Source: Escherichia coli (GTDB lineage: Bacteria > Pseudomonadota > Gammaproteobacteria > Enterobacterales > Enterobacteriaceae). Taken from it: 64,000 nucleotides of DNA. The notes below the pieces were generated by a model. That model saw nothing but the letters and a program-made list of their open reading frames with translations, did no database searches and had not been told where the DNA came from. The position numbers and the translations under genes were made by a program. Shown here one piece after another: positions 2,268 through 51,732 of this stretch (position 1 is the stretch's first letter; every line of letters begins with the position of its first letter). Location: the NCBI RefSeq assembly GCF_965641715.1, contig NZ_OZ282453.1; one strand, given 5' to 3'.

Positions 2268-2277
2268 GGTGATTTCC

Positions 2278-7232: not shown

Positions 7233-7248
7233 AGTTTAGGGAGATTTG

Positions 7249-8283: not shown

Positions 8284-8378
8284 AAATACAGGGCTGGAAT
8301 CATCCGGCCCTTTTTTCTGATATGATACGCAAACGTGTGCGTCGGCAGGAAAACGCGATTTTAGCGGTAATTCGCACG

Positions 8379-8450
<72 letters not shown>

Positions 8451-8495
8451 AGCAAAAGATTTTAAAACGTTAATTCACACCCAGGAGTGATAAAG

Positions 8496-9209
8496 ATGCA
8501 AAAGCAAGCTGAGTTGTATCGTGGTAAAGCGAAAACCGTATACAGCACGGAAAACCCGGACCTGTTGGTGCTCGAATTCCGCAATGATACGTCAGCAGGG
8601 GATGGCGCGCGCATTGAGCAGTTTGATCGCAAAGGTATGGTGAACAACAAGTTCAACTACTTCATTATGAGCAAACTGGCTGAAGCGGGTATCCCGACTC
8701 AAATGGAGCGTCTGCTCTCCGATACCGAATGTCTGGTGAAAAAGCTGGATATGGTACCGGTTGAGTGTGTCGTGCGTAACCGTGCTGCGGGCTCTCTGGT
8801 GAAACGTCTTGGAATCGAAGAAGGTATTGAGCTGAACCCGCCGCTGTTCGATCTGTTCCTGAAAAACGACGCCATGCACGATCCGATGGTCAACGAATCT
8901 TACTGCGAAACCTTTGGCTGGGTGAGCAAAGAGAACCTGGCGCGTATGAAAGAGCTGACCTACAAAGCGAACGACGTGCTGAAAAAACTGTTCGATGATG
9001 CTGGTCTGATTCTGGTCGACTTCAAGCTGGAATTTGGTCTGTACAAAGGCGAAGTGGTACTGGGTGATGAGTTCTCCCCGGACGGTAGCCGCCTGTGGGA
9101 CAAAGAAACACTGGAGAAAATGGACAAAGACCGTTTCCGCCAGAGCCTCGGTGGCCTGATCGAGGCCTATGAAGCCGTCGCCCGCCGCCTGGGTGTACAG
9201 CTGGACTGA
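8496..9209 (+). CDS. purC: Phosphoribosylaminoimidazole-succinocarboxamide (SAICAR) synthase
   Basis: [16 protein letters not shown]..., 237 aa. Matches PurC. Confidence 0.9.
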
Positions 9210-9376
9210 TTTTTCTGTTCATCATCTTGCCGTGCTGCTGGCACGGCAAGACAACCATTCTCGTAAGATGTGCAATGAACGCTCATTCCTCCGCCATTTC
9301 ATCCCGCTTTCCTGTGGTAATCTTCCTCTGAACCACCTACGATCATTTCTATAATGAATATATTGTTGAGGTATCT

Positions 9377-10240
9377 ATGCGTTGGCAAGGGCGACGTGAA
9401 AGTGACAATGTTGAAGACAGGCGCAACAGCTCTGGTGGTCCGTCTATGGGCGGTCCCGGTTTTCGCCTGCCGAGCGGTAAAGGCGGGCTGATTTTACTGA
9501 TAGTCGTGCTGGTTGCAGGCTACTATGGCGTTGATTTAACCGGGTTGATGACCGGACAGCCGGTTTCCCAACAGCAATCAACGCGGTCAATTAGCCCAAA
9601 TGAAGACGAAGCCGCAAAATTCACCTCGGTGATTCTGGCAACTACGGAAGACACCTGGGGACAGCAGTTCGAGAAGATGGGTAAAACCTATCAGCAACCG
9701 AAGCTGGTCATGTACCGTGGAATGACGCGTACCGGCTGCGGGGCGGGCCAGTCCATAATGGGGCCATTCTATTGCCCGGCGGATGGCACGGTTTATATCG
9801 ATCTCTCCTTCTATGATGACATGAAAGACAAACTTGGCGCGGATGGCGATTTTGCCCAGGGGTACGTTATCGCCCATGAAGTCGGTCATCATGTGCAGAA
9901 ACTGTTAGGCATCGAGCCGAAAGTTCGTCAACTGCAACAAAACGCGACGCAGGCGGAAGTGAACCGCTTATCTGTGCGTATGGAACTCCAGGCCGACTGT
10001 TTTGCCGGTGTCTGGGGGCATAGTATGCAGCAGCAAGGCGTTCTGGAAACCGGCGATCTGGAAGAGGCGCTGAACGCGGCGCAGGCCATCGGCGATGACC
10101 GTTTACAACAGCAAAGTCAGGGGCGAGTAGTACCAGACAGTTTCACTCATGGCACTTCTCAGCAACGCTACAGCTGGTTTAAACGTGGTTTCGACAGCGG
10201 CGATCCGGCACAATGCAATACTTTTGGTAAAAGCATTTAA
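9377..10240 (+). CDS. ypfJ: Putative Zn-metalloprotease-like protein YpfJ
   Basis: 287-aa ORF with an N-terminal TM segment and a HEVGHH zinc-binding motif. Position and length match YpfJ. Confidence 0.85.
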
Positions 10241-39132: not shown

Positions 39133-40532
39133 ACACTCGCCAGCTACTGAGCGTCGGTATCGATATCGGCACCACCACCACCCAGGTGATTTTCTCCCAC
39201 CTGGAACTGGTTAACCGTGCGGCGGTGTCGCAGGTGCCGCGCTACGAATTCATCAAACGCGAAATTAGCTGGCAAAGCCCGGTGTTCTTTACCCCTGTCG
39301 ATAAACAGGGTGGTTTAAAAGAAGCGGAACTGAAATCGCTGATTTTAGAGCAATATCAGGCTGCGGGCATTGCGCCGGAAAGCGTTGATTCTGGTGCCAT
39401 CATCATCACCGGTGAAAGCGCGAAAACCCGCAATGCTCGCCCGGCGGTGATGGCGCTCTCTCAGTCGCTGGGCGATTTTGTCGTCGCCAGCGCCGGGCCG
39501 CACCTCGAATCCGTGATCGCCGGTCACGGTGCCGGGGCGCAAACCCTTTCTGAACAACGGCTGTGTCGGGTACTGAATATCGACATCGGCGGTGGCACCG
39601 CGAACTACGCCCTGTTCGATGCCGGAAAAATCAGCGGCACTGCCTGCCTCAACGTCGGTGGTCGCCTGCTGGAAACCGACAGCCAGGGGCGCGTGGTTTA
39701 CGCTCATAAACCGGGGCAGATGATTGTGGATGAGTGCTTCGGCGCAGGCACCGATGCCCGTTCGCTGACCGGCGCGCAGCTGGTGCAGGTTACCCGGCGG
39801 ATGGCAGAGCTGATTGTCGAAGTGATTGACGGAACGCTTTCGCCGCTCGCGCAGGCATTAATGCAAACCGGTTTGCTGCCCGCAGGTGTTACGCCCGAAA
39901 TCATTACGCTTTCTGGCGGCGTGGGCGAATGTTATCGCCACCAGCCCGCCGACCCGTTCTGTTTTGCCGATATTGGCCCGCTTCTGGCAACGGCGCTGCA
40001 TGACCATCCGCGCCTGCGTGAGATGAACGTGCAGTTTCCGGCGCAAACCGTGCGCGCCACGGTGATTGGTGCGGGTGCACATACCCTTTCGCTCTCTGGC
40101 AGCACAATCTGGCTGGAGGGCGTACAACTGCCGCTGCGCAATTTGCCGGTGGCGATCCCAATTGATGAAACGGATCTGGTGGGTGCCTGGCAACAGGCGC
40201 TGATTCAGCTGGATCTTGATCCCAAAACTGACGCGTACGTGCTGGCGCTTCCCGCCTCGCTGCCTGTGCGTTACGCCGCGGTACTGACGGTCATCAACGC
40301 GTTGGTCGATTTCGTCGCGCGTTTTCCGAATCCGAATCCCCTGCTGGTGGTGGCCGGGCAGGACTTTGGTAAAGCTCTGGGCATGTTGTTGCGCCCACAG
40401 CTACAACAACTCCCGTTGGCAGTCATTGACGAAGTGATTGTCCGCGCGGGGGACTATATCGACATTGGTACGCCTCTTTTTGGCGGATCGGTTGTGCCGG
40501 TGACGGTGAAATCACTCGCATTTCCTTCCTGA
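39129..40532 (+). CDS. eutA: Ethanolamine ammonia-lyase reactivase EutA
   Basis: 467-aa ORF. 4-bp overlap with eutH. Its last 19 bp (40514..40532) coincide with the attL repeat of the inserted element. Confidence 0.9.
   Translation: MNTRQLLSVGIDIGTTTTQVIFSHLELVNRAAVSQVPRYEFIKREISWQSPVFFTPVDKQGGLKEAELKSLILEQYQAAGIAPESVDSGAIIITGESAKTRNARPAVMALSQSLGDFVVASAGPHLESVIAGHGAGAQTLSEQRLCRVLNIDIGGGTANYALFDAGKISGTACLNVGGRLLETDSQGRVVYAHKPGQMIVDECFGAGTDARSLTGAQLVQVTRRMAELIVEVIDGTLSPLAQALMQTGLLPAGVTPEIITLSGGVGECYRHQPADPFCFADIGPLLATALHDHPRLREMNVQFPAQTVRATVIGAGAHTLSLSGSTIWLEGVQLPLRNLPVAIPIDETDLVGAWQQALIQLDLDPKTDAYVLALPASLPVRYAAVLTVINALVDFVARFPNPNPLLVVAGQDFGKALGMLLRPQLQQLPLAVIDEVIVRAGDYIDIGTPLFGGSVVPVTVKSLAFPS
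40514..40532. repeat. attL-like direct repeat (ACTCGCATTTCCTTCCTGA), forming the present 3' end of eutA
   Basis: 13/19 identity, including the identical core CTTCCTGA, with attR at 51714..51732. Confidence 0.6.
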
Positions 40533-40627
40533 ATACTGTAGTTATCAGGCGTGGCGCTGGGTGGCTGGGTGTTAGTGGGATTATATCCGGCTGTGTATCC
40601 GGTCGGGGTGATTGGTCTGTATAGCAG

Positions 40628-40652
40628 AAAACCCGGCGCGGGGCCGGGTGAA
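40628..40652 (-). terminator. Rho-independent terminator after the element's 186-aa cargo gene
   Basis: Minus-strand RNA ACCCGGCcccgcGCCGGGTtttctg. The same hairpin recurs at 42316..42340. Confidence 0.6.
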
Positions 40653-40655
40653 CTA

Positions 40656-41216
40656 TCACTCAGGGAACAAGTTGATTTGAAGCAAACTGCCAATGTATTT
40701 ACCAGTGCTTTTAATTTTTCGCTTTGATGGCTTACACGAATTCAGGTTGACACCAGCCTGGCTAGATATTGGCTTGTATTGCCGCTCCGCCAGTACGATC
40801 AGGTCTGCCGCGTCTTTTAGCTTTCCATCGTTAGCCAGTTCCAATGCTCGATCCGCCATTTGCCCGCATTGTTGAATCAGCTTAAGTTGCGATACCTCCA
40901 GTCGCAATTGCTGGATTCGTTCTACCACTTTCGCCCTAATGCGCTTAGTTTCACGCATTCCCATTCTTAATGCCTGGTTGCCAGTAAGTGAGTAAACCTC
41001 TTTTTCTTTCCTGAAGTTTGCGGCTTTACCGTCAGCTTGGACGCGCATTTTATGCGCTTCCAAGAATTCGCCCTCCAATTCATCCCTGATCTTCGCGTTG
41101 AATCTGTCGTTCTTGAGTTCATTTAACCCTTCCGCCTTGCGGATCTGGTTGATTAACTCCAACAATTCATCACTGCGGATACGCCACTCGCTATCAACCT
41201 GTACCAAGTCAAACAT
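40656..41216 (-). CDS. Hypothetical coiled-coil protein (cargo gene A of the element)
   Basis: ORF 40656..41309. The internal start MFDLVQVDSEWRIRSDELLELINQ at 41216 has a GGGAG SD 5 nt upstream and is used here. No recognisable catalytic motif. Its 3' end abuts the attL side. Confidence 0.5.
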   Translation of the reverse strand: MFDLVQVDSEWRIRSDELLELINQIRKAEGLNELKNDRFNAKIRDELEGEFLEAHKMRVQADGKAANFRKEKEVYSLTGNQALRMGMRETKRIRAKVVERIQQLRLEVSQLKLIQQCGQMADRALELANDGKLKDAADLIVLAERQYKPISSQAGVNLNSCKPSKRKIKSTGKYIGSLLQINLFPE

Positions 41217-41380
41217 GTTGTTGCTCCCGTTTTGCTGCCATAGGGCAACGGCTCGCCAGCCTTTATCACCTCCTTTAGTTGTTGCGATTCTTAACTGAAT
41301 GGTTATCAAAACGCTGCGTTAATATCATTGATATGTATCAAATTTGTTTTGTGACGCGACAATGCCTTGTGAATATCAAT

Positions 41381-41410
41381 AAAAAACCCAGCGCTATGGC
41401 TGGGCTTCGT
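41381..41410 (-). terminator. Rho-independent terminator after the HTH regulator gene
   Basis: Minus-strand RNA GCCCAGCcataGCGCTGGGtttttt. Stop codon at 41438. Confidence 0.65.
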
Positions 41411-41413
41411 TTA

Positions 41414-41451
41414 ATGAGATGGGATTGAAAGCGGGTTTTATTTATCTCCCA
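41414..41451. promoter_or_regulatory. Operator-like site O1 (ATGAGATGGGA ... ATCTCCCA) upstream of cargo gene A
   Basis: Contains the reverse complement of the 11-mer TCCCATCTCAT found in O2, plus an ATCTCCCA half-site. Confidence 0.4.
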
Positions 41452-42220
41452 GATTGTATTCCCAGTTGGGAAGTAAAGTTATCAGCTTGTCACCTTTCTT
41501 GCCTTTGCCGATCTGGTTGCCGTTCTCGTCTTTCTTGTGTGTGATTTCCTGGTCAACCTTAATCAATCCTCTCTCTTTGGCTTGCTCAATCAGTCGGTAG
41601 AATGCGCCGTTACTAATCGGCTTCCGGTTACCGTCGTTATCCATCGCAGTGATTTTCTGTTGCAGTCCGGCGTTATTGCCCAGGTATTCGCCACCTAACG
41701 CCGCCAGTACCTGACACAACATGCCGACACTGTATTTTTTCGGATTTGGGTTAATCCATTCTTTAGCTCCCATCTCTTTTTTGTCGTTGGGCGCTTGTTC
41801 TGCTGCTACTGCGTTCACCTTTTCATCTCCCATCTTGTTACCGCTTGCTGTGCGCTTAATTTCTTCCAGTTCTCTCTCAAGCTCACCTATACGTAATTCA
41901 CGCTCGATAATTACCCCGCGCAGCACATCATCATCACCGTGAGGGCTTGCCTGAATCCAGTTACCATTGGCGAGCGGTAGGAGGGCATAAATTCCGAACA
42001 GGTCACAAAGCGCGGCAAGTGTATTAAAATCAGGTTCCCGGCGTCCCTCCATCCAGTGGCTAACAGCGCCTTTTGTGACTGGTTCGCCTTTCTTGCTTTT
42101 AACACCCATGCGATCCAGTGCGGCGGCTATCTCTTCGCATTTAATGCCACGACCGCCAGCATAGCCCGCCGCTTTCGCGGCCCCTTTGAGGATGTCGTGA
42201 ATTTTCATTTCGTAACTCAT
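41438..42220 (-). CDS. XRE-family helix-turn-helix transcriptional regulator with a ~190-aa C-terminal domain of unknown function (cargo gene B)
   Basis: ORF 41438..42235. Probable start MSYEMKIHDILKGAAKAAGYAGGRGIKCEEIAAALD... with GGAGA 7 nt upstream. The N-terminal 70 aa have the Cro/C1 HTH pattern. Confidence 0.6.
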   Translation of the reverse strand: MSYEMKIHDILKGAAKAAGYAGGRGIKCEEIAAALDRMGVKSKKGEPVTKGAVSHWMEGRREPDFNTLAALCDLFGIYALLPLANGNWIQASPHGDDDVLRGVIIERELRIGELERELEEIKRTASGNKMGDEKVNAVAAEQAPNDKKEMGAKEWINPNPKKYSVGMLCQVLAALGGEYLGNNAGLQQKITAMDNDGNRKPISNGAFYRLIEQAKERGLIKVDQEITHKKDENGNQIGKGKKGDKLITLLPNWEYNLGDK

Positions 42221-42226
42221 AATTTT

Positions 42227-42257
42227 ATCTCCCATCTCATGAACTATGGTGGGAGAT
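42227..42257. promoter_or_regulatory. Operator O2: perfect inverted repeat ATCTCCCA-N15-TGGGAGAT overlapping the SD and start of the HTH regulator gene
   Basis: Seen directly. A near-identical IR sits at 42935..42965 and a related site at 41414..41451. Probable autoregulatory site. Confidence 0.5.
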
Positions 42258-42315
42258 TAACACGGCGGGCCTGTGGCGGGTAAGTGTAACGGGAGAGAAT
42301 GTTGATTCAGGTCAC

Positions 42316-42340
42316 AAAAACCCGGCGCGGGGCCGGGCTG
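42316..42340 (-). terminator. Rho-independent terminator after the membrane-anchored cargo gene C
   Basis: Minus-strand RNA AGCCCGGCcccgcGCCGGGtttttgtg. Near-identical to the hairpin at 40628. Confidence 0.6.
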
Positions 42341-42359
42341 TGTTAGTACGTCGTTGCTC

Positions 42360-42836
42360 TTAGTTCATGAGGAGATCTTTAAATTCGACGCCGTATTCAT
42401 GGGCAATGTCGCCTCTATAGTAGATGTTATCTTTCAGGATATATCCGACGTTTCTCAGGACGTGAGAACACTCTCTTACTGCTGCCTCTTTACCCCTTAA
42501 AACATCCTCCCCGCTAACTTCTTCGCCGCTGTACTTCACTGCGATGTTGTCTGCTGCACGCTCTGCTGCTTCCAGGCAATTAATCTTCACTTTTCCCCGA
42601 TTCTCCCAGGCAAAATCGCGGCCATAAATCCCCATTGCATCAACCATCTTTTGCGCAGTAGTGCGCTCATCCACCCATTCAGTGCGTTCGAACTTCTCGC
42701 CAGCAGCTACCCTTGCCGCCAGTTGTTCGTGTTGAGTCTGTACGGCCGCAGCCTCTTCTTCCCATTTGCCTTGCTCGTTGTATACGATGAAGCCAGTGAT
42801 GACTGCAGCGATTAGTAACTTGTCCAGAAAATTCAT
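42360..42836 (-). CDS. Hypothetical protein with a single N-terminal transmembrane helix (cargo gene C)
   Basis: 158 aa, MNFLDKLLIAAVITGFIVYNEQ then a soluble Glu/Ala-rich domain. SD-like sequence upstream. No family recognised. Confidence 0.5.
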   Translation of the reverse strand: MNFLDKLLIAAVITGFIVYNEQGKWEEEAAAVQTQHEQLAARVAAGEKFERTEWVDERTTAQKMVDAMGIYGRDFAWENRGKVKINCLEAAERAADNIAVKYSGEEVSGEDVLRGKEAAVRECSHVLRNVGYILKDNIYYRGDIAHEYGVEFKDLLMN

Positions 42837-42934
42837 AGCTTCCTCCTATCTGTTCAATTACCCGGCATCTCTTGCCGTTGAACGTATTAAACAAAATGCC
42901 AGTCAGGGATAAAGCGATCTGCGTCATAAAGTCC

Positions 42935-42965
42935 ATCCCCCATCTCATTGATATTGATGGGAGAT
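42935..42965. promoter_or_regulatory. Operator O3: inverted repeat ATCCCCCA-N15-TGGGAGAT about 100 bp upstream of cargo gene C
   Basis: Same half-sites and same spacer start (TCTCAT) as O2. Confidence 0.45.
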
Positions 42966-43056
42966 TGTTTAATTGGTCAGAAATTAAGCGTTTATGTGCG
43001 CTGCCGGGTATCCACCTCCTATCTGAAGATGGAAAGATGGGTGATATAATGTGATG

Positions 43057-43120
43057 GCAATTGGTGGATTGCGTGGTTTTTACAATGATAAGGGGCTGGC
43101 GTAATGCTGGCCCCTTTGTT
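43057..43120 (+). ncRNA. Candidate small RNA (extended -10 promoter to plus-strand-specific terminator)
   Basis: TGaTATAAT at 43042..43050. Hairpin GGGGCUGGC-guaau-GCUGGCCCC + UUUGUUU at 43091..43120 pairs, with two G-U wobbles, only in the plus-strand transcript. No convincing ORF. Confidence 0.25.
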
Positions 43121-43170
43121 TATCCGGTATCCGGTATCCGGTATAAGCGGGCGTGTATCCGGTAGCGGGG
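43121..43170. repeat. Tandem heptamer repeat (CCGGTAT x3.5) followed by GTGTATCCGGTAGCGGGG
   Basis: Seen directly. A related GTGTATCCGGTCGGGG lies at 40593..40608 near attL. Confidence 0.6.
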
Positions 43171-43356
43171 ATATGGGCGCGTGTACGTGAAATCTGGCAA
43201 ATTAGCAGGGTAATTGTGAGGGAATTTTTGCGTAGGAGCGTTTGTGGCTGGTAGCTCAAAATTGAGCTTTGCTTTTCATTCAATGACTTAGGTTAATTCT
43301 AGCAAAACGCTAGGATTGAATGTCCGCCAGTCTGCTTCCCCTAGCGTGGGATTTGG

Positions 43357-45723
43357 TCAACGTCTGCGCGGCTGCAAAATTCCTCCGGGTCGTTGTGATT
43401 CACGCTGCATCAGTCGCATCGCTGTGTTTTCTATGGTCTGCTGCAGCGCTTTTGAGTCTTCCTCTGTCCAGCCGTTGTTAGCCTGGATGTTGAACGTATT
43501 GTTCATCGTGATTCCGCCACCGCCTACCAGATCGCGGCCCGGTGTAACTCGTCCACCTTCACCCGGGATCATGTACTGTTTCCCGCCAGTGGATGTAAAT
43601 AGCTCCGGTACTCCGTGCTCCCCGACCCTATAAAGATTGCCACCGTTAACAGCCCCGCCGTTGTAACGAGCGCCAGCCAGTCCAAGCGTTTTGGCGGCAG
43701 CTACGCCAGTAGTAAGCCCGGTAAGTCCAGTGGCCCCAGCGCCGCCCATCGTGGCTACGTTAGCCAGGTATGCAGGAGTGGCCCACGCCGATCCTAATGC
43801 TGTAGCCTCTGCTAGTGCTTTAGCTGTTGCGGCTGCGTTTGCGGCTTCACCAATTAGCTGCTGTTTAACCCACTCAGCACCCATCTGGACAATGCCACCG
43901 ACCACAGAAGACAGGATCGTACTGCCAACGTTGGCAAGTGACTCTTGCAGCGATTGAGTACCGTTTATCAGTCCGGTAAATGCGCTGCCAGCGCCAGACG
44001 ATAACCCATCGACCATATTCCCGATGAGGCCATTTATATCGCTTTGTTTCTTCCACTGCTGCCACTGGAGATCCAGAACCCTTTGTTCATGTGCGATCTC
44101 TTCCTGGCGCAACTGCTCTTCGGTAGCCCCAAGATCTAGAAGCATTTGCTTGCGAACAGCCCATTCATTTTGGATCTTCTGTATTGGGTCAATCTGAGCT
44201 TTCTGCTTATCCTGCTCACTGACAAGACTGTCCCATTTCGCTTTCTGCTTGCGGATGGCTTCAGCTTCATCAATTGCTGCGAGTGTACTTGCTCGCTGTT
44301 TCGCGCTGATCAACCGTTTCTGCTCAGCCGCTTCCAGGTCTTCTACTGCTTTTTTCCGTTTATTGAGCGCCGCTAGTTCGGGATCGTATTTTTCCACCAA
44401 TGAAAGGCCGCTTGCTTCCTTACGTTCGCGTTCTCTTTGTGCCTGTTTGGCTGCCTGCTTAGCGGCGTTTTCTGCTTGTTTGGCTGCTCTTTCTTTCGCC
44501 CTGGTGTTCTCTTCTTCCTTGCGCTTATTCTCTTCTAACTCCTTGTTTTGTTCGCGTAATTTAACGATTTCCTCATGATGCGCCTTTGTCAGCTGGCCTT
44601 CTTTCAGTGCCCGATCTATATCAGCGTTTGCGTTGCCTTTTAGCTGTTCCTGTTTAACTTGCAGATGTTTAATCATCATTTCGCCAGTGGCAATCGCTGC
44701 CGCAGACGCTCCAGCATTCAGAGCTTCATTTAACGCTCTCTGACGTTCTTCTGCTGTTAATGCCTCGTTGCTGTATCGAAGTAGCGCATCAACGTATTTC
44801 TCCAGTTCTGCGCGGCCTGCCGCAGTTGCTGGTTCCATTGCTTTTAGGATGCTCAGAAGGCTTTGCGCTTCATAGGAAGACGGGTTTTTGCGGAACTGCG
44901 CCATAGCGTTATAAAGCGCCATAGCTTCACCCTCTGTGATTCTGTACTTAGCTCCCAGCCCTTCAATGACCGCTGATAACTGTTTGCCAAGCGCTGCACC
45001 GAATGCGCCTTCCTTGCTTAATTTGTTGAGCACTTCACTCAGTGAATTTCCTGACACGCCCAGCGCGTCGAGTTCTCTTGCTACCGTTCCCAGGTCGCCG
45101 CCTTTCATCCATCCTGCATTAGAAAATTCAGTGATAGCCCGGCCCGCTTCCCGCGTTTCTTCCTGGAGTGTTTTTAGCGCCCGCACGGCCTGCTCTTTCA
45201 TTACGGCGGCGGCAATGGCGTTGTTCTGTGTGGCTTCGTAATATGAATCACTGAAAGCGTTAACGCCCTGGGTGGATTTGCCGATCACGGCGTCGATTGA
45301 TGCTAATGCCTCCTTCATCCTTTCAGCGCTATCCGTTGCGTCGTCCATGCTGTCCGTTAGGCTGTTGGCAATCGCCCCGCCAATAGCCATCACCGCCCCC
45401 ATGACCGCACCGCCAGTACCGAAGGCAGCGGCAAGTTGTGCACCCTGCACAGCGAACGCCTGGAGCGCATTACCGCCCATCTGCAATTGAGTGGCAAGGT
45501 CTGCGATCTGGTATGATGCGTTACGGATTGCCGGGGAAAGGTTGGTTTTGACTGCGGCAGACGTTTTGGTCATCTGCGTGTTCAGTTTTTTGACGCCACT
45601 GTCAGCGCGTTTTGCGCCGCGTTCTATACTGTCAAAAGCCTGGTCCGCTTCTTGTTGTGCTGCCAGGAGTTTACCAGTACGGGCGTCGACCTCATAGTAT
45701 ATGGTCCCAAGATTCCCACTCAT
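43357..45723 (-). CDS. Tape-measure-like large coiled-coil protein (lambda-H-type C-terminal region), orphan
   Basis: 788 aa with an Ala/Glu/Lys/Gln-rich heptad-like central region (EENKRKEEENTRAKERAAKQAENAAKQ...). Gly-rich C-terminus with LYRVGEHGVPELF, the 'VGExGPELF' signature recalled for lambda-family tape-measure C-terminal domains. No neighbouring tail genes. Confidence 0.6.
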   Translation of the reverse strand: MSGNLGTIYYEVDARTGKLLAAQQEADQAFDSIERGAKRADSGVKKLNTQMTKTSAAVKTNLSPAIRNASYQIADLATQLQMGGNALQAFAVQGAQLAAAFGTGGAVMGAVMAIGGAIANSLTDSMDDATDSAERMKEALASIDAVIGKSTQGVNAFSDSYYEATQNNAIAAAVMKEQAVRALKTLQEETREAGRAITEFSNAGWMKGGDLGTVARELDALGVSGNSLSEVLNKLSKEGAFGAALGKQLSAVIEGLGAKYRITEGEAMALYNAMAQFRKNPSSYEAQSLLSILKAMEPATAAGRAELEKYVDALLRYSNEALTAEERQRALNEALNAGASAAAIATGEMMIKHLQVKQEQLKGNANADIDRALKEGQLTKAHHEEIVKLREQNKELEENKRKEEENTRAKERAAKQAENAAKQAAKQAQRERERKEASGLSLVEKYDPELAALNKRKKAVEDLEAAEQKRLISAKQRASTLAAIDEAEAIRKQKAKWDSLVSEQDKQKAQIDPIQKIQNEWAVRKQMLLDLGATEEQLRQEEIAHEQRVLDLQWQQWKKQSDINGLIGNMVDGLSSGAGSAFTGLINGTQSLQESLANVGSTILSSVVGGIVQMGAEWVKQQLIGEAANAAATAKALAEATALGSAWATPAYLANVATMGGAGATGLTGLTTGVAAAKTLGLAGARYNGGAVNGGNLYRVGEHGVPELFTSTGGKQYMIPGEGGRVTPGRDLVGGGGITMNNTFNIQANNGWTEEDSKALQQTIENTAMRLMQRESQRPGGILQPRRR

Positions 45724-46012
45724 AATATCTTTATCCGCGTTGTGCGGACACCTCCGATTATTCTTTACTCTAATAATTTCACAATGAAACAGTTTATTGC
45801 CGCTTCAGTGGCTTCGTGTTCCGGTTTGCTTCGATCAATCACAAAAAATACAGCTTAATAGAATCAATGGCTTATAAAGTTGTATTAGCTATGTTTCTTC
45901 GTCCGTGCCACTGAAAACCCAGTTTTTCCAATGGAATCAATACTGATATGTATCCATACTGTTTTTCACATAATGTACGTTATGCGCACTACGGGAAACG
46001 TACTGAATTTAT

Positions 46013-46243
46013 TTACTGGTCGCCGTTCAGTTCATGCAGAGTCTGTTCTGGCAATGAATCCAGCCAGTTTTCTGCATCCTCCCTGTAACACTCCAGGATG
46101 CAACGGTTTGTGAAGTTGATGAAAGCGGTCAGTGATTCTGCTTCGTCGTTCCTGTGCGTTCTCCTGGCGTGCTTGCGTAGTCGTTTCGCGTCTGCCAGTT
46201 GGTCATTGAGTATCTTCAGTCTGTCGGCAATATCATCGTTCAT
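46013..46243 (-). CDS. Hypothetical small protein (76 aa)
   Basis: ORF co-oriented with the element's genes. 290-bp non-coding gap before the tape-measure-like gene. No motif recognised. Confidence 0.35.
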   Translation of the reverse strand: MNDDIADRLKILNDQLADAKRLRKHARRTHRNDEAESLTAFINFTNRCILECYREDAENWLDSLPEQTLHELNGDQ

Positions 46244-46430
46244 GTCGTCTCTCCCTCGCGCGCGCGTCGTACTTGTCCGAAAATTACCCCCATAAAAGCG
46301 CCCCTCATATAGTGCAAAATCCCGGCTGACGCGGATCTCAGTGGGTTTTAGCAGTGAAAACTGACATCAAAAACGGCTCGCTAAGGTCCGCTAAGTATCC
46401 GCTATCGTTCGCTAACCCCCCGCTAACCTA

Positions 46431-46796
46431 TTAGATATCGCATCCAACGCTATTGAGCTGGCTATGTATATCGGCGCGAATTAACTTCAGGCGTTTACAA
46501 AATTCGCGTTCTTCCGAATTAAGCTCGCGGCCACCTTGTTTCGAGGCAATGAGCTTGTTGATGGTGGAAAGCGAATATTCACTCCATATACGAAGCATTT
46601 GTCGCTTCATTGGTTGCTCGCTCAATGGTGAGTTTTTCAGGTCTGACACGCGCTCTGCGACGGTTCTTGCGATGCCTTGTACCACTCGTAGTGCCAACAT
46701 GATGATTTTCTCCGGACTTGTGCTAATATAGTTCCCGAACATTGTTTCGAGACTGCTTATCCTGTTTGTCTTGTCCGATTTGTTCATTGGTCGCAT
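46431..46796 (-). CDS. Hypothetical protein (121 aa)
   Basis: Co-oriented ORF in the compact gene array 46431..47993. No family recognised. Confidence 0.45.
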   Translation of the reverse strand: MRPMNKSDKTNRISSLETMFGNYISTSPEKIIMLALRVVQGIARTVAERVSDLKNSPLSEQPMKRQMLRIWSEYSLSTINKLIASKQGGRELNSEEREFCKRLKLIRADIHSQLNSVGCDI

Positions 46797-46838
46797 TGTT
46801 AAGTCAGCCGGGGTAATTCCCGGCTTTCTTTTATCCGA

Positions 46839-47381
46839 TCAGTACCGAATCCCTATCGCATTGAATACGCGTTTCCGTTGCTCAGCTTCAGGATCGGCGG
46901 CCATTTCTGGTTCTGGCTCCGGCATAGACGGGGCGGCATCAAAATGCTCAATTTCACGACCGAAATACGAGTTCAGGTCAATACCTGCCGAACTATCCAC
47001 TCCATCAAAATAGCGACGCTGTTCCTCGGTGAGACAGCTACCCAGACGTTCCTCAACCTGCGCCATAAACTCAGCATCCGGTGAGAAGTACTCATCCGGA
47101 GTCGGAGCACCGCTCTGTTTGTGCATCTCCATTTTCTCTGCGTTCGTTTTCAGCCCGGCAATGCGTTTCTCCAGTCCGGCGGCTTTAATAGCGTCAGCAA
47201 CGATTTGTGGGATCTGCGGTTTAATTATTTCGATAACTTCATTGCTGATTAATTTAAACTGGGCCATACGGATCGCTTTAATCTGCTTATTTAACAGTGC
47301 GCGTTCCCCTTCGTTGGCGGTTTTATCACGCTGTGCTACCAGTTCATCGCCTTTGTTTGTCAGTACATCAAATGCGTCCAT
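46839..47381 (-). CDS. Hypothetical phage-like protein (180 aa, acidic C-terminus)
   Basis: Co-oriented ORF. C-terminus PEPEPEMAADPEAEQ. Possible packaging or scaffold-type function, assigned by position only. Confidence 0.45.
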   Translation of the reverse strand: MDAFDVLTNKGDELVAQRDKTANEGERALLNKQIKAIRMAQFKLISNEVIEIIKPQIPQIVADAIKAAGLEKRIAGLKTNAEKMEMHKQSGAPTPDEYFSPDAEFMAQVEERLGSCLTEEQRRYFDGVDSSAGIDLNSYFGREIEHFDAAPSMPEPEPEMAADPEAEQRKRVFNAIGIRY

Positions 47382-47398
47382 TGTCTTTCCTCCTCCGA

Positions 47399-47725
47399 TT
47401 ATTTAAAAGTGCTTATTGACACGCCGAAACGACGACTTAATTCAAAAAGGAGTCGCGCCTTTGCAGTGCCTTCCATGTCTTCCGGCATTTCAGACTGAAG
47501 TTTATCAGCTACTTCATCAACAAGTGGCCGAACCGTTTCCACGAACTTGTCCGCAATATAATCAGCAGAACGCATCACTTTTTCCTGGAATTCCTCACGG
47601 CGTACCTGGGCGGCTGATTTAGGGGCTGTCGTGCGCTGAAAATAACTGTCTAATGAATGCATGGCATCTGCTCCTTTTACTTTGATTGCTGTTATTTCTT
47701 TAATTGTGTTTGCTTTGATTTTCAT
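47399..47725 (-). CDS. Hypothetical protein with a C-terminal HTH-like segment (108 aa)
   Basis: C-terminal ...AKARLLFELSRRFGVSISTFK resembles a DNA-binding helix-turn-helix. Confidence 0.4.
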   Translation of the reverse strand: MKIKANTIKEITAIKVKGADAMHSLDSYFQRTTAPKSAAQVRREEFQEKVMRSADYIADKFVETVRPLVDEVADKLQSEMPEDMEGTAKARLLFELSRRFGVSISTFK

Positions 47726-47801
47726 GCTGCCTATTCCTTCAGAAATTGCGGTAGTTTGCTTTTTAAATCAATAAGTTATTTGATAATCTCAGTAGCTGTT
47801 T

Positions 47802-47993
47802 TCATTGGTGGCGAGCGCCTTTGTTTTTATAGAATTCCAAAATCTCAGATCGGATAAACTTAATTCTTGAGCCAATCGGACTGACCGGGACGGGCCAGCC
47901 TTTAATCTTGTTCATCCACCGGAATATTGTCCGACGGGTAACGCCGAATAAAGCTGCTACCTCGTTAACCGTCATTAATTCGCTATCATTCAT
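47802..47993 (-). CDS. alpA: AlpA-family prophage transcriptional regulator / excisionase-like protein
   Basis: 63 aa, MTVNEVAALFGVTRRTIFRWMNKIKGWPVPVSPIGSRIKFIRSEILEF, the classic AlpA (MerR-type wHTH) pattern found next to P4-type integrases. Confidence 0.75.
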   Translation of the reverse strand: MNDSELMTVNEVAALFGVTRRTIFRWMNKIKGWPVPVSPIGSRIKFIRSEILEFYKNKGARHQ

Positions 47994-49116
47994 GTTCTCA
48001 CCTCAAAAAGTAGCGGTGAGGAAAATATGGAGAAAACCCTCACCGCGCCCTGAATGAAATTAAAGACCAACATTACTGTTGATACTTATTATTATATTCC
48101 TCCTGTCCCTGTTTCACATCTTTTACCATATAGTGAAAGGGGATATTCTGTAATGTTTACAAAACTTTTAATTAGCAAAAAATAATTGCGCATCTCACGT
48201 AATGCAGGGATAATATTACTCAAGGGCTGGTTGCCCTTACTCAAAATGTGATCTATAACTACAACGATCTATTTCACTTCCCCGCTTTCTCCGGCGGGAT
48301 TTTTTTGCCTGCAATCTGGCACCATTGCGCACATTAAAATTAGATGCCATTTAAAAGCGATATAACGCGTTCTGCCGGGCTTAATTTTGGCTATCCACTT
48401 GGAAGGGTAAGCCTGTTTTGATTCGTCTGGCGTGGAATGGTGCGGCGGTAATATCAGATCTCAGCGTTCTGCGTGGTGGGATGAAATAGCCTGGCAGGAT
48501 TTGCGTGTGGTTTGCTCTCCCAAAAAATGGGGTAATGGCGCTGGCTGGATGGCAGGACTCCGCGCTGATTACTGGATGGCTGAAAATTTAATGAAATCGC
48601 ATCAATTTTAATGCGTCTAAATCGCTCTGTGGCGACGTGAAGTTTTCAGGTAAGCAAGTGTAGCTGTGTGGTGTGTTCATCGCGTTACTGGCACCATTCC
48701 GTTCGAATTTGGCGCTATCAGGATGGTTTGCGGTGGTCGGCGGCGGGGATAAACTTGCTTGAGTGGTCACCTCAGCCTGCTGTGCGTCGTGTGATGGTAC
48801 TGTCTGCACCTGGCTATACGCTGCTTTGCTGCTGTTTCCTGTCTGGTCTGTATACGCGATAAAACCCATCGGCTTTACAGTGAGTGAGTTTTTTGCGCTT
48901 TGCTTTCCATTCGGTTTGCTTACTGCTGCTGTGTGTCTGTGCGGTAGCTCAGAAAGCTGTCGATGATAACCATCACTGCCAGACCGTCTTTTGAGCTGGC
49001 GATTGCTCGAAGTCTTCCGAAGGTCCGCTGGGCTTGTTGCTTGTTTGTGTTCTTTTAAAATGCGCGCCTCTTACTTTCTCTTAAAAAGAAAAAAGGAATA
49101 TACAGATCTCATACTA

Positions 49117-49274
49117 TGTGTGTCCCAAATGTCACACGTCATGGCCTGACCTGTATCCCAAATGTCACACGTCACCCTCTGACCTGTATCCCAAATGTCA
49201 CACGTACCTGTGTCCCAAATGTCACACGTCTATTGTTAATTAATTGTTGACCTGTGTCTCAAATGTCACACGTC
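49117..49274. repeat. Iteron array: 5 direct copies of ~22-bp CTGT(G/A)TCCCAAATGTCACACGTC with an AT-rich tract (49231..49250) before the last copy; putative replication origin
   Basis: Copies start near 49119, 49151, 49186, 49208 and 49252. Directly downstream of the Rep-like gene. Confidence 0.75.
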
Positions 49275-49338
49275 TGTTGATGGTTTAAGTAATAAAAAGG
49301 GCCACCATTTTAGGTGACCCATTGATGCGTTTTAGTCG

Positions 49339-50103
49339 TTATCTTGCGTTCTCGACCTGAAAAAGCATTCTGTATTTTCTTGCGTGCTGACCAATAACAT
49401 ATTCCCCGTATGGCTCAATGAGTCCTAACTCAACCAGGATTTTCATCTGGCGAATTACGGTGCGGCGATTCATGCCCCATTCATCAGCTATTTTTGCCTG
49501 GCAAACTTCAGATACATAAGATCCATCATTCTGCTTTCTTGCTGCTGATGCAATGCTGGATAATACGCTCCAGGCTGTAGCTTTAGCTTTATTCTCGCAA
49601 CCACTTCTGACAAATGCCTTACGTGCCGCACCCAAACAGACATAACTGCAATAAATTCCTTTTTCTTCCGTTTGGTATTGTGTCTCTTTATCCTGCATGG
49701 CTTCCGGTTCTTCCGGCGCTTCCTGCTGTGGTGCTGTCTGCGAAGTTTTAGCGGCCATACTGCGTAGCTCGTTCACGATATCAGTAGCTGATTTCTTCTC
49801 GCTTTTAGTTTCCTGCGTGACTGATAAATACTCACCTTGTAACGCCAGGAAGTCAGCGCGGGCGTTTGCCTGGCTTTGTTCTGGTGATTCAGGTTCTGCA
49901 TCGGCAGGTGATGAAATCGGTGATACACGCGCCCAGCCTGTTTTGGCGTTGCATTCCCAGCGATAACCATTAAAGCGGATATCATTCAGGCCATCATCAA
50001 TGGCGCTCCGTACTTCTTCCGGGATCGCGTCGATTTTCTGAAGGCTGTGTTTACCGAGTGATTCGCCTTGCCGTGGGGCGTAGGCGGTTGGTAAAATATT
50101 CAT
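49339..50103 (-). CDS. Putative replication initiator / iteron-binding protein with a C-terminal winged-HTH
   Basis: 254 aa. C-terminal ...KIADEWGMNRRTVIRQMKILVELGLIEPYGEYV is a wHTH. Adjacent to the iterons. Acidic low-complexity middle region. Confidence 0.55.
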   Translation of the reverse strand: MNILPTAYAPRQGESLGKHSLQKIDAIPEEVRSAIDDGLNDIRFNGYRWECNAKTGWARVSPISSPADAEPESPEQSQANARADFLALQGEYLSVTQETKSEKKSATDIVNELRSMAAKTSQTAPQQEAPEEPEAMQDKETQYQTEEKGIYCSYVCLGAARKAFVRSGCENKAKATAWSVLSSIASAARKQNDGSYVSEVCQAKIADEWGMNRRTVIRQMKILVELGLIEPYGEYVIGQHARKYRMLFQVENAR

Positions 50104-50349
50104 GTGGGATTTCTCCTTTTTACTTGTTTCCCATATCGCCCGGATTGGTTAGCGGCCTTCCGGGCTTTTTGTTGCGTTGATCCTATTTTCGATCCCCGGA
50201 TTTTTTATTACAAACTTGGCTTAATCATTGATTTTATTGGTATAGCTGTATAAAAGGATAACAGGATAAAAGGGTGATAGATTGTGTAACCTGTTAACCT
50301 TTTATACCAGTAAGGCGAAAGAAAAGCCGGACGAATCCGGCCTTATAGT

Positions 50350-51555
50350 TCACGGCTCCAGCGGATTACCGCCACCAGCCAATATCTGGTCGATGGCGTC
50401 GCTGTAGTCCTGCATCATGGCCCGCCGTTGCTTCAGATAGGCCGCCTGGTTATAAACGCCGCGCACACCTTTCGGAACGTGGGCCAGTTGGATTTCGATC
50501 CAGTCTGGTGAGTATCTGCCGTACTCGTTAAGTGCGGTTGAAAAGGTGGTTCGCCAGCCGTGACCAGTGGCTATCGACTTGTATCCGATACGCTCCAGGG
50601 CTTTAAGGATGGCACTGGCTGAAAGTGGCTTATCCATGAATCGACCAGGGAACACAAAAGCACTGTATCCGCTGCGGGTAAACTGGTCCTGTAATAGCTC
50701 GACCGCCTGCCGGGATAGCGGGACCACATGCGGGCGGCGGGCCTTCATGACTTCAGCGGGTAGGGTGATGGTTGCCGATTCCAGATCTACCCACTCCCAG
50801 CGCATTAAACGCAGTTCTGCGGTCCTTAGGGCGCTTAATATAAGCAAACGTATTGCCGTCTGAATCTGAACGCTCCCGGCTCTCTCAAGGGCTTTGTAGA
50901 AGGCCGGGATTTCGTTAATTTGTATCCATGCGTTATGGCCTGGGCGTCGGGCTTTCAATGCCGTGTCCAGATCTGCAACCGGATTTCGGTTAACCAGTTC
51001 AGTGATAACGGCAAATTTGAAGATTTCCCCTATACGCTGCCGTAATTTTCGGGCCTGTTCCGGCGCGGTGCGCTCTTTCTTCTGAAGCAATGCCAGCACG
51101 TCACGGGCCGTTATATCGACAATCGACCGCTTGCCAAGTACCGGATAAACATCTTTCTCCAGTGCCGATCTAACTTGTTTCGTGTAAGACTCAGACCAAC
51201 CGCTCACTCTGGTAGCAAACCAGTCTTCCGCTACCGTCTTAAAACTTGCCGCCATGTTGAGCGCATCAATGGCTTTCTCCTTGCGCGCTTCTTCCATTGG
51301 GTCAATTCCCTGGGCGATGAGTAAACGGCTCTCTGTGGCGCGTTTACGTGCTTCCTTCAAGGTAATCAGCGGATATACCCCAATAGCCTGTAACCGCTCT
51401 TTCTTGTCTATCCAGTACCGGAATCGCCAGTATTTGCTGCCATTGGGATGTACCAGCAAGAACAGGCCAGGTGTCTGTGAATCGGTGAGTTTGTAGGGCT
51501 TGTCCTTCGGCTGGGCGGCCTCTATGCCCTTTGCTGTCAGTGGTGTCTTGCTCAA
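50350..51555 (-). CDS. intZ: Tyrosine recombinase/integrase, P4 family (IntZ-like)
   Basis: 401 aa. N-terminal arm-binding region MSKTPLTAKGIEAAQPKDKPYKLTDSQTPGLFLLVHPNGSKYWRFRY and C-terminal catalytic region with ...HGWRTTFSTALNE...LAHV...Y. Adjacent to eutB as intZ is in K-12. Confidence 0.85.
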   Translation of the reverse strand: MSKTPLTAKGIEAAQPKDKPYKLTDSQTPGLFLLVHPNGSKYWRFRYWIDKKERLQAIGVYPLITLKEARKRATESRLLIAQGIDPMEEARKEKAIDALNMAASFKTVAEDWFATRVSGWSESYTKQVRSALEKDVYPVLGKRSIVDITARDVLALLQKKERTAPEQARKLRQRIGEIFKFAVITELVNRNPVADLDTALKARRPGHNAWIQINEIPAFYKALERAGSVQIQTAIRLLILSALRTAELRLMRWEWVDLESATITLPAEVMKARRPHVVPLSRQAVELLQDQFTRSGYSAFVFPGRFMDKPLSASAILKALERIGYKSIATGHGWRTTFSTALNEYGRYSPDWIEIQLAHVPKGVRGVYNQAAYLKQRRAMMQDYSDAIDQILAGGGNPLEP

Positions 51556-51713
51556 AACCGGATACCTCGATCTAACGACTCGATAACCCCGCTCATGTAT
51601 CCGTCGCGTTCGGTTGCGTTCGGCAGGATAAGTAACGGGCGTATTAAGTGGAACACCTTACAGGACAAGGGATAACGATGAAATAGAATTGTTCGAATGC
51701 TGTGAAAAATGTT

Positions 51714-51732
51714 ACTCATCACTTCTTCCTGA
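51714..51732. repeat. attR-like direct repeat (ACTCATCACTTCTTCCTGA), remnant of the ancestral eutA 3' end directly upstream of the eutB RBS
   Basis: Partner of 40514..40532. 130 bp downstream of the integrase gene. Confidence 0.6.

Follow-up and report, generated by a model that had tools for sequence, protein, structure and literature searches.

A lone tape measure gene in an 11-kb eutA/eutB island of Escherichia coli as a candidate satellite-encoded tail protein

A stretch of 64,000 nucleotides of Escherichia coli DNA (NCBI RefSeq assembly GCF_965641715.1, contig NZ_OZ282453.1), here called the window, carries a gene for a 788-aa tape measure protein (TMP) at positions 43357-45723 on the minus strand. 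The gene stands alone in an 11,200-bp island (40533-51732) that lies exactly between eutA and eutB, encodes the integrase IntZ and is flanked by the direct repeat TTCCTGA. An earlier note on this DNA had offered two explanations for the isolated gene, a remnant of a decayed lambdoid tail module or a tape-measure-derived protein with another role. The present analysis points to an option beyond these two, for which the PLE satellites of Vibrio provide a precedent (PMC12987554): the lone TMP gene is probably used to tamper with or to borrow the tail of a helper phage and would thus not be prophage debris. In its specific form, the preferred reading is that a satellite-type element carries its own working TMP for chimeric tails assembled from helper parts, and it is given a probability of about one half. 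It builds on the homology and intactness of the gene, on purifying selection, on cassette structure, on mosaicism with phages and on the context of the element family.

The gene is a single unbroken open reading frame (ORF) with an ATG start codon. In the profile search that had been proposed as a check of the tape-measure assignment, the protein was matched by PHROG 1538 ('tail length tape measure protein') with an E value of 8.1e-112, residues 1-774 aligning with positions 1-799 of the 811-position profile, and five more TMP PHROGs were also hit. The Pfam model TMP_2 (PF06791) reached 25.7 bits over residues 53-203 only, which is under its gathering threshold of 30.2, and PF06791 is given in the precomputed Pfam annotation of several close homologues. 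In the PDB, the sole real match was 9occ_M at E 1.1e-41, an entry titled 'Tail tape measure protein gp18', and the alignment was dense over aa 545-746. Chain M of 9OCC is gp18, the 780-aa virion TMP of the Shigella siphophage Sf11, the C-terminal helix of which is embedded in the tail tip in the solved structure (PMC12724387). By these matches, the 788-aa protein is a genuine full-length TMP homologue.

The features read from the protein in the earlier note were recovered as well. A coiled-coil-type composition is found at aa 351-560 (71% A/E/K/Q/R/L, 40% charged residues, helical in character), the C-terminal part is rich in glycine (17-18% over aa 561-788), and neither a lysozyme nor a peptidase domain was detected in the protein. 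Hydrophobic stretches are located at aa 94-124 and aa 594-614. The motif LYRVGEHGVPELF occupies aa 697-709 (window 43597-43635) and is kept in all island alleles and in the TMPs of the phages mEp021 and mEp013 and of a phage contig from Logan (L008); in Sf11 gp18 it takes the form YRVGENNLPEIF. Its attribution to phage lambda itself was not confirmed, and no lambda gpH chain matched the protein at E <= 1 in the PDB search. As previously noted from the ORFs, tail genes are missing on either side: no tail tube, chaperone, baseplate or fibre family was found among the 10 other island ORFs with Pfam, PHROGs and NCBIfam. Unlike in the standard layout, the TMP gene does not lie within a tail module with the chaperone before it and the tail-tip genes after it. 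The description of a gene with spacers of its own in a small integrase element holds, with 289 bp upstream (45724-46012) and 520 bp of repeat-bearing DNA downstream (42837-43356).

The TMP gene is under strong purifying selection. When the window gene was compared codon by codon with those of four diverged loci, dN/dS was 0.10-0.13, and over all ten pairs of the five loci it was 0.10-0.19 at dS values of 0.26-2.3, which are saturated or beyond in most pairs. No stop codon or frameshift was found in 2.4 kb across the five loci compared. More than 60 protein clusters of close homologues (69-100% identical) were obtained, and all of those with a source name came from E. coli. Length is tightly held in the first 61 clusters, 57 of which measure 784-791 aa and 50 of which are 787 or 788 aa long. 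A TMP variant scored as 100% identical was present, undisrupted, on at least 24 contigs (53 index blocks).

Alleles of the gene fall into three classes of 726, 733 and 788 aa, which are only 31-46% identical to each other and all intact. These are carried by locus L002, locus L001 and the window, respectively. The backbones of the window and L001 are 98.5% identical at the nucleotide level over 45577-51493, and L002 is 85-94% identical to the window across the same arm and 99% identical over 41264-43675. The crossover points between alleles lie inside the first ~50 and the last ~100 codons of the TMP gene. Leader and TMP gene appear as a swappable and self-contained cassette, which comprises together with its downstream flank:
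45724-45990, minus strand: conserved non-coding leader of 267 bp (labelled 'UCR'), 78-100% nucleotide identity between elements.
43357-45723, minus strand: mosaic TMP gene of 788 aa, defined by PHROG 1538, homology and codon analysis.
43090-43185, no strand assigned: conserved non-coding segment downstream of the TMP gene, consisting of a hairpin (43090-43116) and a GTATCCGGT array (43120-43163).

The leader is 78-100% identical in the TMP-carrying loci examined, though the TMPs encoded there are only 34-85% identical. It precedes the TMP gene in all of these loci except L015, which keeps only the last ~70 nt of it, and the gene upstream of the leader differs from element to element. Among 5,426 complete E. 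coli genomes the leader was found once each in 79, and it was never annotated. It was not found in 50,697 phage records by nucleotide search or in Rfam. The non-coding region between the alpA-type gene and the rep-like gene of the island likewise gave no match in phage genomes by nucleotide search, so that, at any identity the search could detect, neither of the two was copied from a cos, pac or late-promoter region of a phage. At the end of the leader (45724-45770, minus strand), GGAGG is followed by a hairpin with a 5-bp stem (TCCGC-ACAAC-GCGGA), 10 nt and the ATG. This Shine-Dalgarno sequence is 27 nt away from the start codon and the hairpin in between is conserved in 7 of 7 aligned loci. 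Only folding of the hairpin would place GGAGG near the ATG, and the arrangement may represent a split ribosome-binding site or a translational switch. In the consensus RNA folding of the whole leader, a compensatory change was present in only 2 of 78 predicted pairs, by which a structure is neither supported nor refuted. A sigma-70 scan yielded fewer matches than shuffled sequences and none that was convincingly conserved upstream of the TMP gene.

The phage TMPs nearest to the island protein are not those of lambda and its relatives but of the mEp021/mEpimmI group of temperate, non-lambdoid coliphages. The TMP of mEp021 has been detected in virions by mass spectrometry (PMC11893012). The window TMP is a mosaic of phage-like ends, encoded at 45574-45723 (aa 1-50) and 43360-44223 (aa 501-788), and an element-specific middle encoded at 44224-45573 (aa 51-500). 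Scored in windows of 50 aa (maximum 94%), the identities were as follows:
aa 1-50: 72-75% to phage TMPs.
aa 51-500: 10-20% to phage TMPs and at most 31% to any IMG/VR viral contig.
aa 501-600: 50-62% to phage TMPs.
aa 601-700: 84-94% to the TMPs of mEp013 and of the L008 phage contig.
aa 701-788: 47-72% to phage TMPs.

Over aa 431-788 as a whole, the protein is 43-59% identical to the TMPs of mEp021, mEp013 and L008. At the nucleotide level a 363-bp tract is 81% identical to mEp515, and the whole island hits phages only within the 3' part of the TMP gene. The 733-aa allele, present in L001 and in O157:H7, resembles the mEp013 TMP over aa 1-350. Moreover, the length classes run in parallel, with 726/733 aa in elements and 735 aa in phages on the one hand, and 784-791 aa in elements and 776-781 aa in phages on the other. 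This mosaicism indicates that the elements and the mEp021-group phages exchange TMP sequence. The phage-derived parts that are retained in the window TMP are its two ends, and the C-terminal end is the part that is embedded in the tip in solved siphophage tails. In the mEp021 group, the TMP gene belongs to a complete set of tail genes, those for the tip being lambda-like (M, L, K, I, J). In mEp021 (L005), mEp013 (L006) and L008, small genes on the reverse strand on both sides isolate the TMP gene from the tail operon; these blocks include ParE-like and anti-repressor-like genes, and the TMP gene has its own terminator. This unusual phage layout may make the TMP gene easy to exchange as a unit.

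The window island belongs to a family of ~11-kb elements that, by gene content, bears the hallmarks of phage satellites. In the window island itself, the satellite-like features are an integrase gene, an alpA-type gene, a rep-like gene and iterons. All of its genes are on the minus strand, and in the direction of transcription they encode IntZ, a 254-aa HTH_36 protein (followed by five iterons), the AlpA-type regulator, ORFs of 108, 180, 121 and 76 aa, the TMP, and proteins of 158, 265 and 217 aa. Sister islands at eut are laid out as int, rep, alpA, in some cases an HNH gene, small ORFs, an Sf6-type small terminase gene (terS), an ORF of 128-133 aa, leader, TMP and further small ORFs. Every integrated relative examined occupies the same eut site, and the island is present at least in part in 488 of the 5,426 complete E. 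coli genomes. The small terminase of the family (Sf6_terminase, PHROG 1482) is 33% identical to TerS of mEp021 (E 3e-16); most sister elements encode it and the window island does not. One sister island has a gene for a gpI-type tail assembly protein directly after the TMP gene (PHROG 32, E 4e-32), and one circular element has a tail completion gene directly before it (PHROG 5, E 4e-10). The pairing of TMP with other tail parts and a terminase in sister elements points to particle building.

Four integrase-less contigs of ~11 kb share a central block with alpA, HNH, small terminase, TMP cassette and a Rep gene (HTH_36 or DUF5906):
L003: ENA ERZ19652126, 11,006 bp.
L004: Logan SRR13871237, 11,218 bp.
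L015: ENA ERZ27318220, 11,214 bp.
L013: GCA_035950855.1 contig 49, 11,061 bp.

In three of the four contigs the two ends overlap, by 119, 141 and 30 nt. These lengths correspond to k or k-1 of the likely assembler k-mer, which indicates that the three are circular molecules of ~10.9-11.2 kb. Many further TMP homologues are located on contigs of 10.3-12.8 kb, and these data suggest that part of the family is plasmid-like or episomal.

One family member without the TMP cassette is CPZ-55, a cryptic prophage of K-12. In the K-12 annotation it begins immediately behind the stop codon of eutA and extends to a point 12 nt before the start of eutB. Its YffO protein (L026, NC_000913.3 2562111-2563117, covering yffO and yffP) is 46% identical to the small terminase of L007 (E 1.5e-30), and YffP corresponds to the ORF located behind the terminase gene of some relatives. 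A packaging-type gene has thus been kept in CPZ-55, but the TMP cassette was either lost or never present. The complete small plasmids CP057168 (9,003 bp) and CP057337 (9,653 bp) also have no TMP gene and carry a serine recombinase gene after the conserved segment. Some relatives are degraded, with truncated eutB and intZ in L001 and L012. In the literature consulted, no paper was found that links CPZ-55-type islands to satellites, phage-inducible chromosomal islands (PICIs) or TMPs, and they are treated as cryptic prophages.

The junction of the 76-aa ORF and the leader behaves as an insertion hotspot. In L002 (NZ_AP023286.1), an AIPR-family abortive-infection gene and a 232-aa ORF are inserted between the two at 7038-9545, and in L017 an acyltransferase gene and an insertion sequence (IS) fragment are found between the 76-aa ORF and the TMP leader (1740-3356). 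A further eut island, L012 (E. coli O157:H7 PV15-279, NZ_AP018488.1 3342886-3353523), encodes an mEp013-like TMP of 732 aa, the cluster of which is present on 396 contigs; a YafO-family toxin pair adjoins its integrase gene, in the place taken by the rep-like gene in the window island, and the neighbouring eutB is truncated.

In the proposed course of events, growth of a siphophage in the cell would come first, either one of the mEp021/mEpimmI type or one closely related to it and having a lambda-like tip. The island would then excise with IntZ and AlpA and replicate by means of the Rep-like protein and the iterons. Through the conserved leader, the TMP gene would be switched on. The N-terminal 50 aa and the C-terminal ~290 aa of the protein would dock on the tail-tip and tube-assembly machinery of the helper, the element-specific middle of ~450 aa would serve as the ruler, and chimeric tails of about the helper's length would result (788 aa compared to 776-781 aa). 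Particles with the substituted TMP might in this way escape TMP-directed blocks, either superinfection exclusion by prophages or the element's own interference (compare Rta of PLE11); alternatively, tail assembly might be biased toward satellite particles. The identity of the helper, the entry of the protein into tails and the benefit are inferred here from sequence comparisons. A precedent is given by the Vibrio PLE satellites, which encode their own TMP that is incorporated into chimeric tails; TMP, chaperone and hub of PLE replace those of ICP1, the tails become shorter, and PLE's own anti-TMP protein Rta is escaped (PMC12987554). A TMP is likewise encoded by the EPIP satellites of mycobacteria, the tails of which are altered (PMC12822802).

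A number of observations weigh against a working satellite TMP in the window. The island does not have the small terminase of most of its sisters, and it encodes no tail assembly chaperone, whereas in PLE a chaperone and a hub accompany the TMP. Neither a phage counterpart nor a convincing promoter was found for the leader, and RNA covariation was uninformative; helper-dependent expression is thus purely conjectural. Prophages resembling mEp021 were present in 35 of the 5,426 complete genomes and in none of the ~60 island-bearing accessions listed; ~0.4 cases of co-residence would be expected by chance, which is too few for the test to inform, and it certainly gave no positive association. Among IMG/VR viral contigs, only complete phages at up to 57% identity were found, and no satellite-sized relative carrying a TMP of the window type. 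The cassette is dispensable in K-12 and in the plasmids, and other cargo, the AIPR gene of L002 and the acyltransferase gene of L017, has been inserted at the same place, a pattern that fits accessory or defence cargo as well. The missing terminase and chaperone, the mute leader, the rarity of mEp021-like prophages and the optional cassette keep alive both a decoy function and a stranded copy of the island as rival explanations.

The optional presence of the cassette would find its explanation if the gene were defence cargo, that is, if the TMP poisoned the tails of infecting siphophages, built no transmissible particles and protected the host population. Its phage-like ends would engage the tip and chaperone machinery of the invader, and its foreign middle would lead to dead-end or non-ejecting tails, a combination that fits a dominant-negative design; the gene would sit in the accessory, hotspot position of the element. 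Related plasmids with a recombinase gene and no TMP gene after the same conserved segment, the insertion of an abortive-infection gene, or of an acyltransferase gene with an IS fragment, at the same point, and the retention of the TMP by an island that has no terminase are all in line with this, and tail assembly is a known target of defence, for instance by Tai, Tab and Rta (PMC11364771, PMC10884400, PMC12987554). It is in this form that the second option of the earlier note, another role for a tape-measure-derived protein, survives. A decoy is nevertheless considered unlikely. No PADLOC match was obtained, a full-length TMP homologue occurs in no known defence system, and sister elements combine the TMP with other tail parts and a terminase; moreover, the tight length (787 or 788 aa in 50 of 61 clusters) and the length classes paralleling those of phages are expected of a ruler and are not needed by a decoy. 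The alternative that the family consists of satellites, but that the window lineage lost its packaging module and still carries a TMP that recombined recently and is not yet decayed, is regarded as quite unlikely. It would account for the 76-aa ORF in place of the small terminase and the 128-aa ORF, no terminase homologue being found in the window island, and for the location of the closest TMP alleles examined (90% and 87% identical) in terminase-bearing islands. Purifying selection was measured between lineages and not within the window lineage, and K-12 CPZ-55 shows that family members do decay. Against a stranded copy stands the terminase-less backbone itself, which holds three different intact alleles (788 aa here, 733 aa in L001, 726 aa in L002), so that exchange and upkeep of the cassette continued after this backbone arose. 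The 100%-identity variant on at least 24 contigs is undisrupted, and int, alpA, the rep-like gene and the iterons of the window island are all intact.

A functionless, decaying leftover of a lambdoid prophage tail module corresponds to the usual view of CPZ-55-type 'cryptic prophages' and to the first option of the earlier note. The conventional annotation of the island as a cryptic prophage, the absence of other tail genes from it and the clear degradation of some relatives (eutB and intZ in L001 and L012) speak for such a leftover, which is very improbable all the same. A dN/dS of 0.10-0.19, at saturated dS, and 2.4 kb free of frameshifts and stops across diverged copies are not what decay would leave behind, and very recent clonal descent of the intact copies is contradicted by their identity spread of 69-100%. 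The gene has a conserved, dedicated leader, it recurs in circular 11-kb elements that never were prophages of 40-50 kb, and its nearest phages are non-lambdoid. A satellite-encoded working TMP is thus preferred over the decoy, the stranded copy and the leftover. A more comprehensive version of this preferred reading is put forward only tentatively: the islands would form a so far unrecognised satellite family of E. coli, ~11 kb in size, integrated by IntZ at eutA/eutB or existing as integrase-less circles, with K-12 CPZ-55 as a degenerate member. The family would parasitise gut siphophages of the mEp021 type by means of its own small terminase and an exchangeable TMP cassette under a dedicated 267-nt control region, and swapping the middle of the TMP while keeping phage-compatible ends would yield particles built on stolen tail parts together with evasion of TMP-directed exclusion or of the element's own interference with the helper.

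The remaining features of the island in the window are:
40526-40532, no strand: left copy of the att core TTCCTGA, overlapping the eutA stop codon (sequence read).
40656-41309, minus strand: 217-aa protein, weakly anti-repressor-like (PHROG 8235, 1726, 10324 and 63, E 1e-5 to 2e-4).
41438-42235, minus strand: 265-aa YffS homologue of the helix-turn-helix (HTH) type (sub-threshold Pfam hits to HTH_31 and HTH_3; 70% to the K-12 yffS region).
42360-42836, minus strand: 158-aa membrane-anchored protein, hydrophobic at its N-terminus and distantly homologous to K-12 YffR (34% to the yffR region).
46013-46243, minus strand: 76-aa ORF at the position where sisters hold the small terminase and the 128-133-aa ORF (no family match).
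46431-46796, minus strand: 121-aa ORF, homologue of K-12 YffM and of the ORF before the small terminase in sisters.
46839-47725, minus strand: 180-aa and 108-aa ORFs, the former corresponding to two separate genes in circular elements.
47802-47993, minus strand: 63-aa HTH regulator of the AlpA/excisionase type (Pfam HTH_17, E 7e-9, 36.2 bits against a threshold of 27; PHROG 66, E 1.7e-9).
49119-49285, no strand: five iteron-like repeats TGTRTCYCAAATGTCACACGT, adjoining the rep-like gene.
49339-50103, minus strand: 254-aa HTH_36 protein, candidate replication initiator (Pfam HTH_36, 23.9 bits against a threshold of 25; weak PHROG replication-initiation matches, E 6e-4 to 6e-3).
50350-51555, minus strand: IntZ tyrosine integrase, 401 aa (NCBIfam PRK09692, E 1e-74; 92% to K-12 IntZ).
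51726-51732, no strand: att core copy at the right end (TTCCTGA), 12 nt before the ATG of eutB (51744).

Scans of all island ORFs with Pfam, NCBIfam and PADLOC gave only the integrase, the alpA-type and weak HTH matches. In particular, the TMP and nine other island ORFs had no match in PADLOC-DB 2.0 at E <= 0.01, and the 158-aa protein had no family match in Pfam, PHROGs, NCBIfam or PADLOC. PHROG 66 is named 'excisionase and transcriptional regulator', and an activator role of the 63-aa protein is predicted. The 254-aa HTH_36 protein has homologues in the same position in L007 and L009 and no detectable primase or helicase domain, and the TGTRTCYCAAATGTCACACGT repeats beside its gene are a probable replication origin. 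The 217-aa protein is 71% identical to its homologue in the sister island L009. Searches at the sequence level, including BLAST against the set of family small terminases, revealed no hidden chaperone or terminase among the small ORFs, and terS, rpp or a similar packaging-redirecting gene was not found in the window island. A P4-like satellite was considered after a DUF5906 protein had been seen in one circular relative, and was rejected: the ORF scans of the window showed no capsid-size-determination or other head protein, and only the alpA-type gene and the integrase are P4-like.

Several non-coding sequences of the island were additionally observed. The spacer downstream of the TMP gene contains TATCCGG in 3.4 copies, a 28-nt repeat in 2.1 copies and a hairpin with a 12-bp stem; the GTATCCGGT array sits inside the 28-nt tandem repeat, which extends to 43185. 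Positions 43176-43240 are conserved at 84-94% in the other family members examined, including the TMP-less K-12 and plasmid CP057337. Perfect GTATCCGGT copies occur five times in the 64-kb window, all of them in the island: at 40595-40603 (plus strand), three times within 43127-43163 (plus strand) and at 51557-51565 (minus strand). Of the end copies, one is ~60 bp from the left end of the island; the other is inverted and lies ~170 bp inward of the right end, immediately beyond the start codon of int. With one mismatch allowed, 21 matches were counted, compared to 9.0 +/- 3.4 in shuffles. These copies may be sites for Int, AlpA, a packaging protein or a partition protein. Reverse-strand ORFs of 74-83 aa downstream of the TMP gene in sister loci were set aside as probably spurious, because their similarity is confined to the conserved repeat DNA. 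Two identical GC-rich hairpins of 21 nt, AAAACCCGGCGCGGGGCCGGG, follow the 217-aa and 158-aa genes (40628-40648 and 42317-42337), with a 71% copy at 41383; the copy at 40628-40648 was called terminator-like on the minus strand, the second copy is absent from that list, and the hairpins may be a small repeated extragenic element. The non-coding DNA at 48240-48503, upstream of alpA, is 74-90% identical to the region of the circularisation junction in the integrase-less L003 and L004 and may be a shared regulatory, origin or packaging-site region. An Rfam scan of the whole island gave no match at E <= 1.

If the satellite reading is true, hijacking of tails by TMP replacement would occur in E. 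coli as well, in a setting where both the candidate helpers (mEp phages grow on K-12) and the islands are genetically tractable. Islands of the CPZ-55 type, present at least in part in 488 of 5,426 genomes, would no longer count as 'prophage debris' but as a satellite-like family, with members both integrated and plasmid-like. Additionally, the three natural TMP alleles on near-identical backbones would allow mapping of the TMP parts that must match the tail machinery and of those that are free to vary. Should the decoy reading be true instead, the gene would represent a new type of tail-assembly defence made from a homologue of a structural protein. Satellite TMPs are a recent discovery, and the PLE study states that no other satellite had been reported with a TMP (PMC12987554). 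What appears to be new here is therefore not the satellite TMP itself, already known if only very recently, but a family of E. coli elements in which the TMP cassette can be exchanged.

In comparison with known systems, the window island resembles the PICIs of Gram-negative bacteria (EcCICFT073; PMC6092414) in its size of ~11 kb, its integrase gene at one end, its AlpA-type regulator, its rep-like gene with adjacent iterons and the absence of capsid and lysis genes, and sister elements share with them a small terminase as the packaging gene. It differs in that no primase domain is detectable, in that terS and rpp are missing and in the existence of integrase-less circular members; the eutA/eutB site and a TMP gene are not mentioned in PMC6092414. 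With K-12 CPZ-55 (intZ, yffL-yffS), the island shares the insertion point, IntZ (92% identical), homologues of yffS (70%), yffM (45% over 64 aa) and yffR (34%), and the GTATCCGGT-containing downstream segment (92%). CPZ-55 differs by having neither TMP nor leader nor a detected homologue of the window alpA, and by keeping YffO, the small-terminase homologue that is 46% identical to TerS of a sister island, and YffP, both of which are missing from the window island.

The TMPs of the mEp021 group (mEp021, mEp013, mEp515; PMC11893012) and Sf11 gp18 belong to the same family as the window TMP and have nearly the same length. They share with it the N-terminal 50 aa and the C-terminal ~290 aa, including the YRVGE..PELF...QYMIPGE.GR block and the RPGG..QPRR tail, and in the mEp021 group the TMP gene is also a unit of its own, placed between reverse-strand morons. 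In contrast to the island gene, the phage genes are part of complete tail modules (tube, DUF6246 protein, M, L, K, I, J) and are not preceded by the 267-bp leader, and by BLAST their middle regions show no relationship to the corresponding 450 aa of the island protein (10-20% aligned identity). The PLE satellites (PMC12987554, Nature 2026) differ from the island in having a chaperone and a baseplate hub beside the TMP, which stands alone in the window and is accompanied by a gpI-like or tail-completion gene in sisters. Furthermore, PLE depends on the lytic myovirus ICP1, whereas temperate siphophages are the candidate helpers of the island; over its whole length the PLE TMP has ~20% identity to that of its helper, whereas the identity of the mosaic window TMP rises to as much as 94% at its ends; and incorporation of the PLE TMP was shown experimentally, whereas the window TMP is known from sequence alone. 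In their general plan the two are nevertheless alike: each is a small integrative element, helper-dependent in the case of PLE and putatively so here, that encodes a full-length TMP homologue of its own and no tube, sheath or fibre genes, and in each the TMP has diverged from that of the actual or candidate helper and its alleles form sequence groups across the variants of the element.

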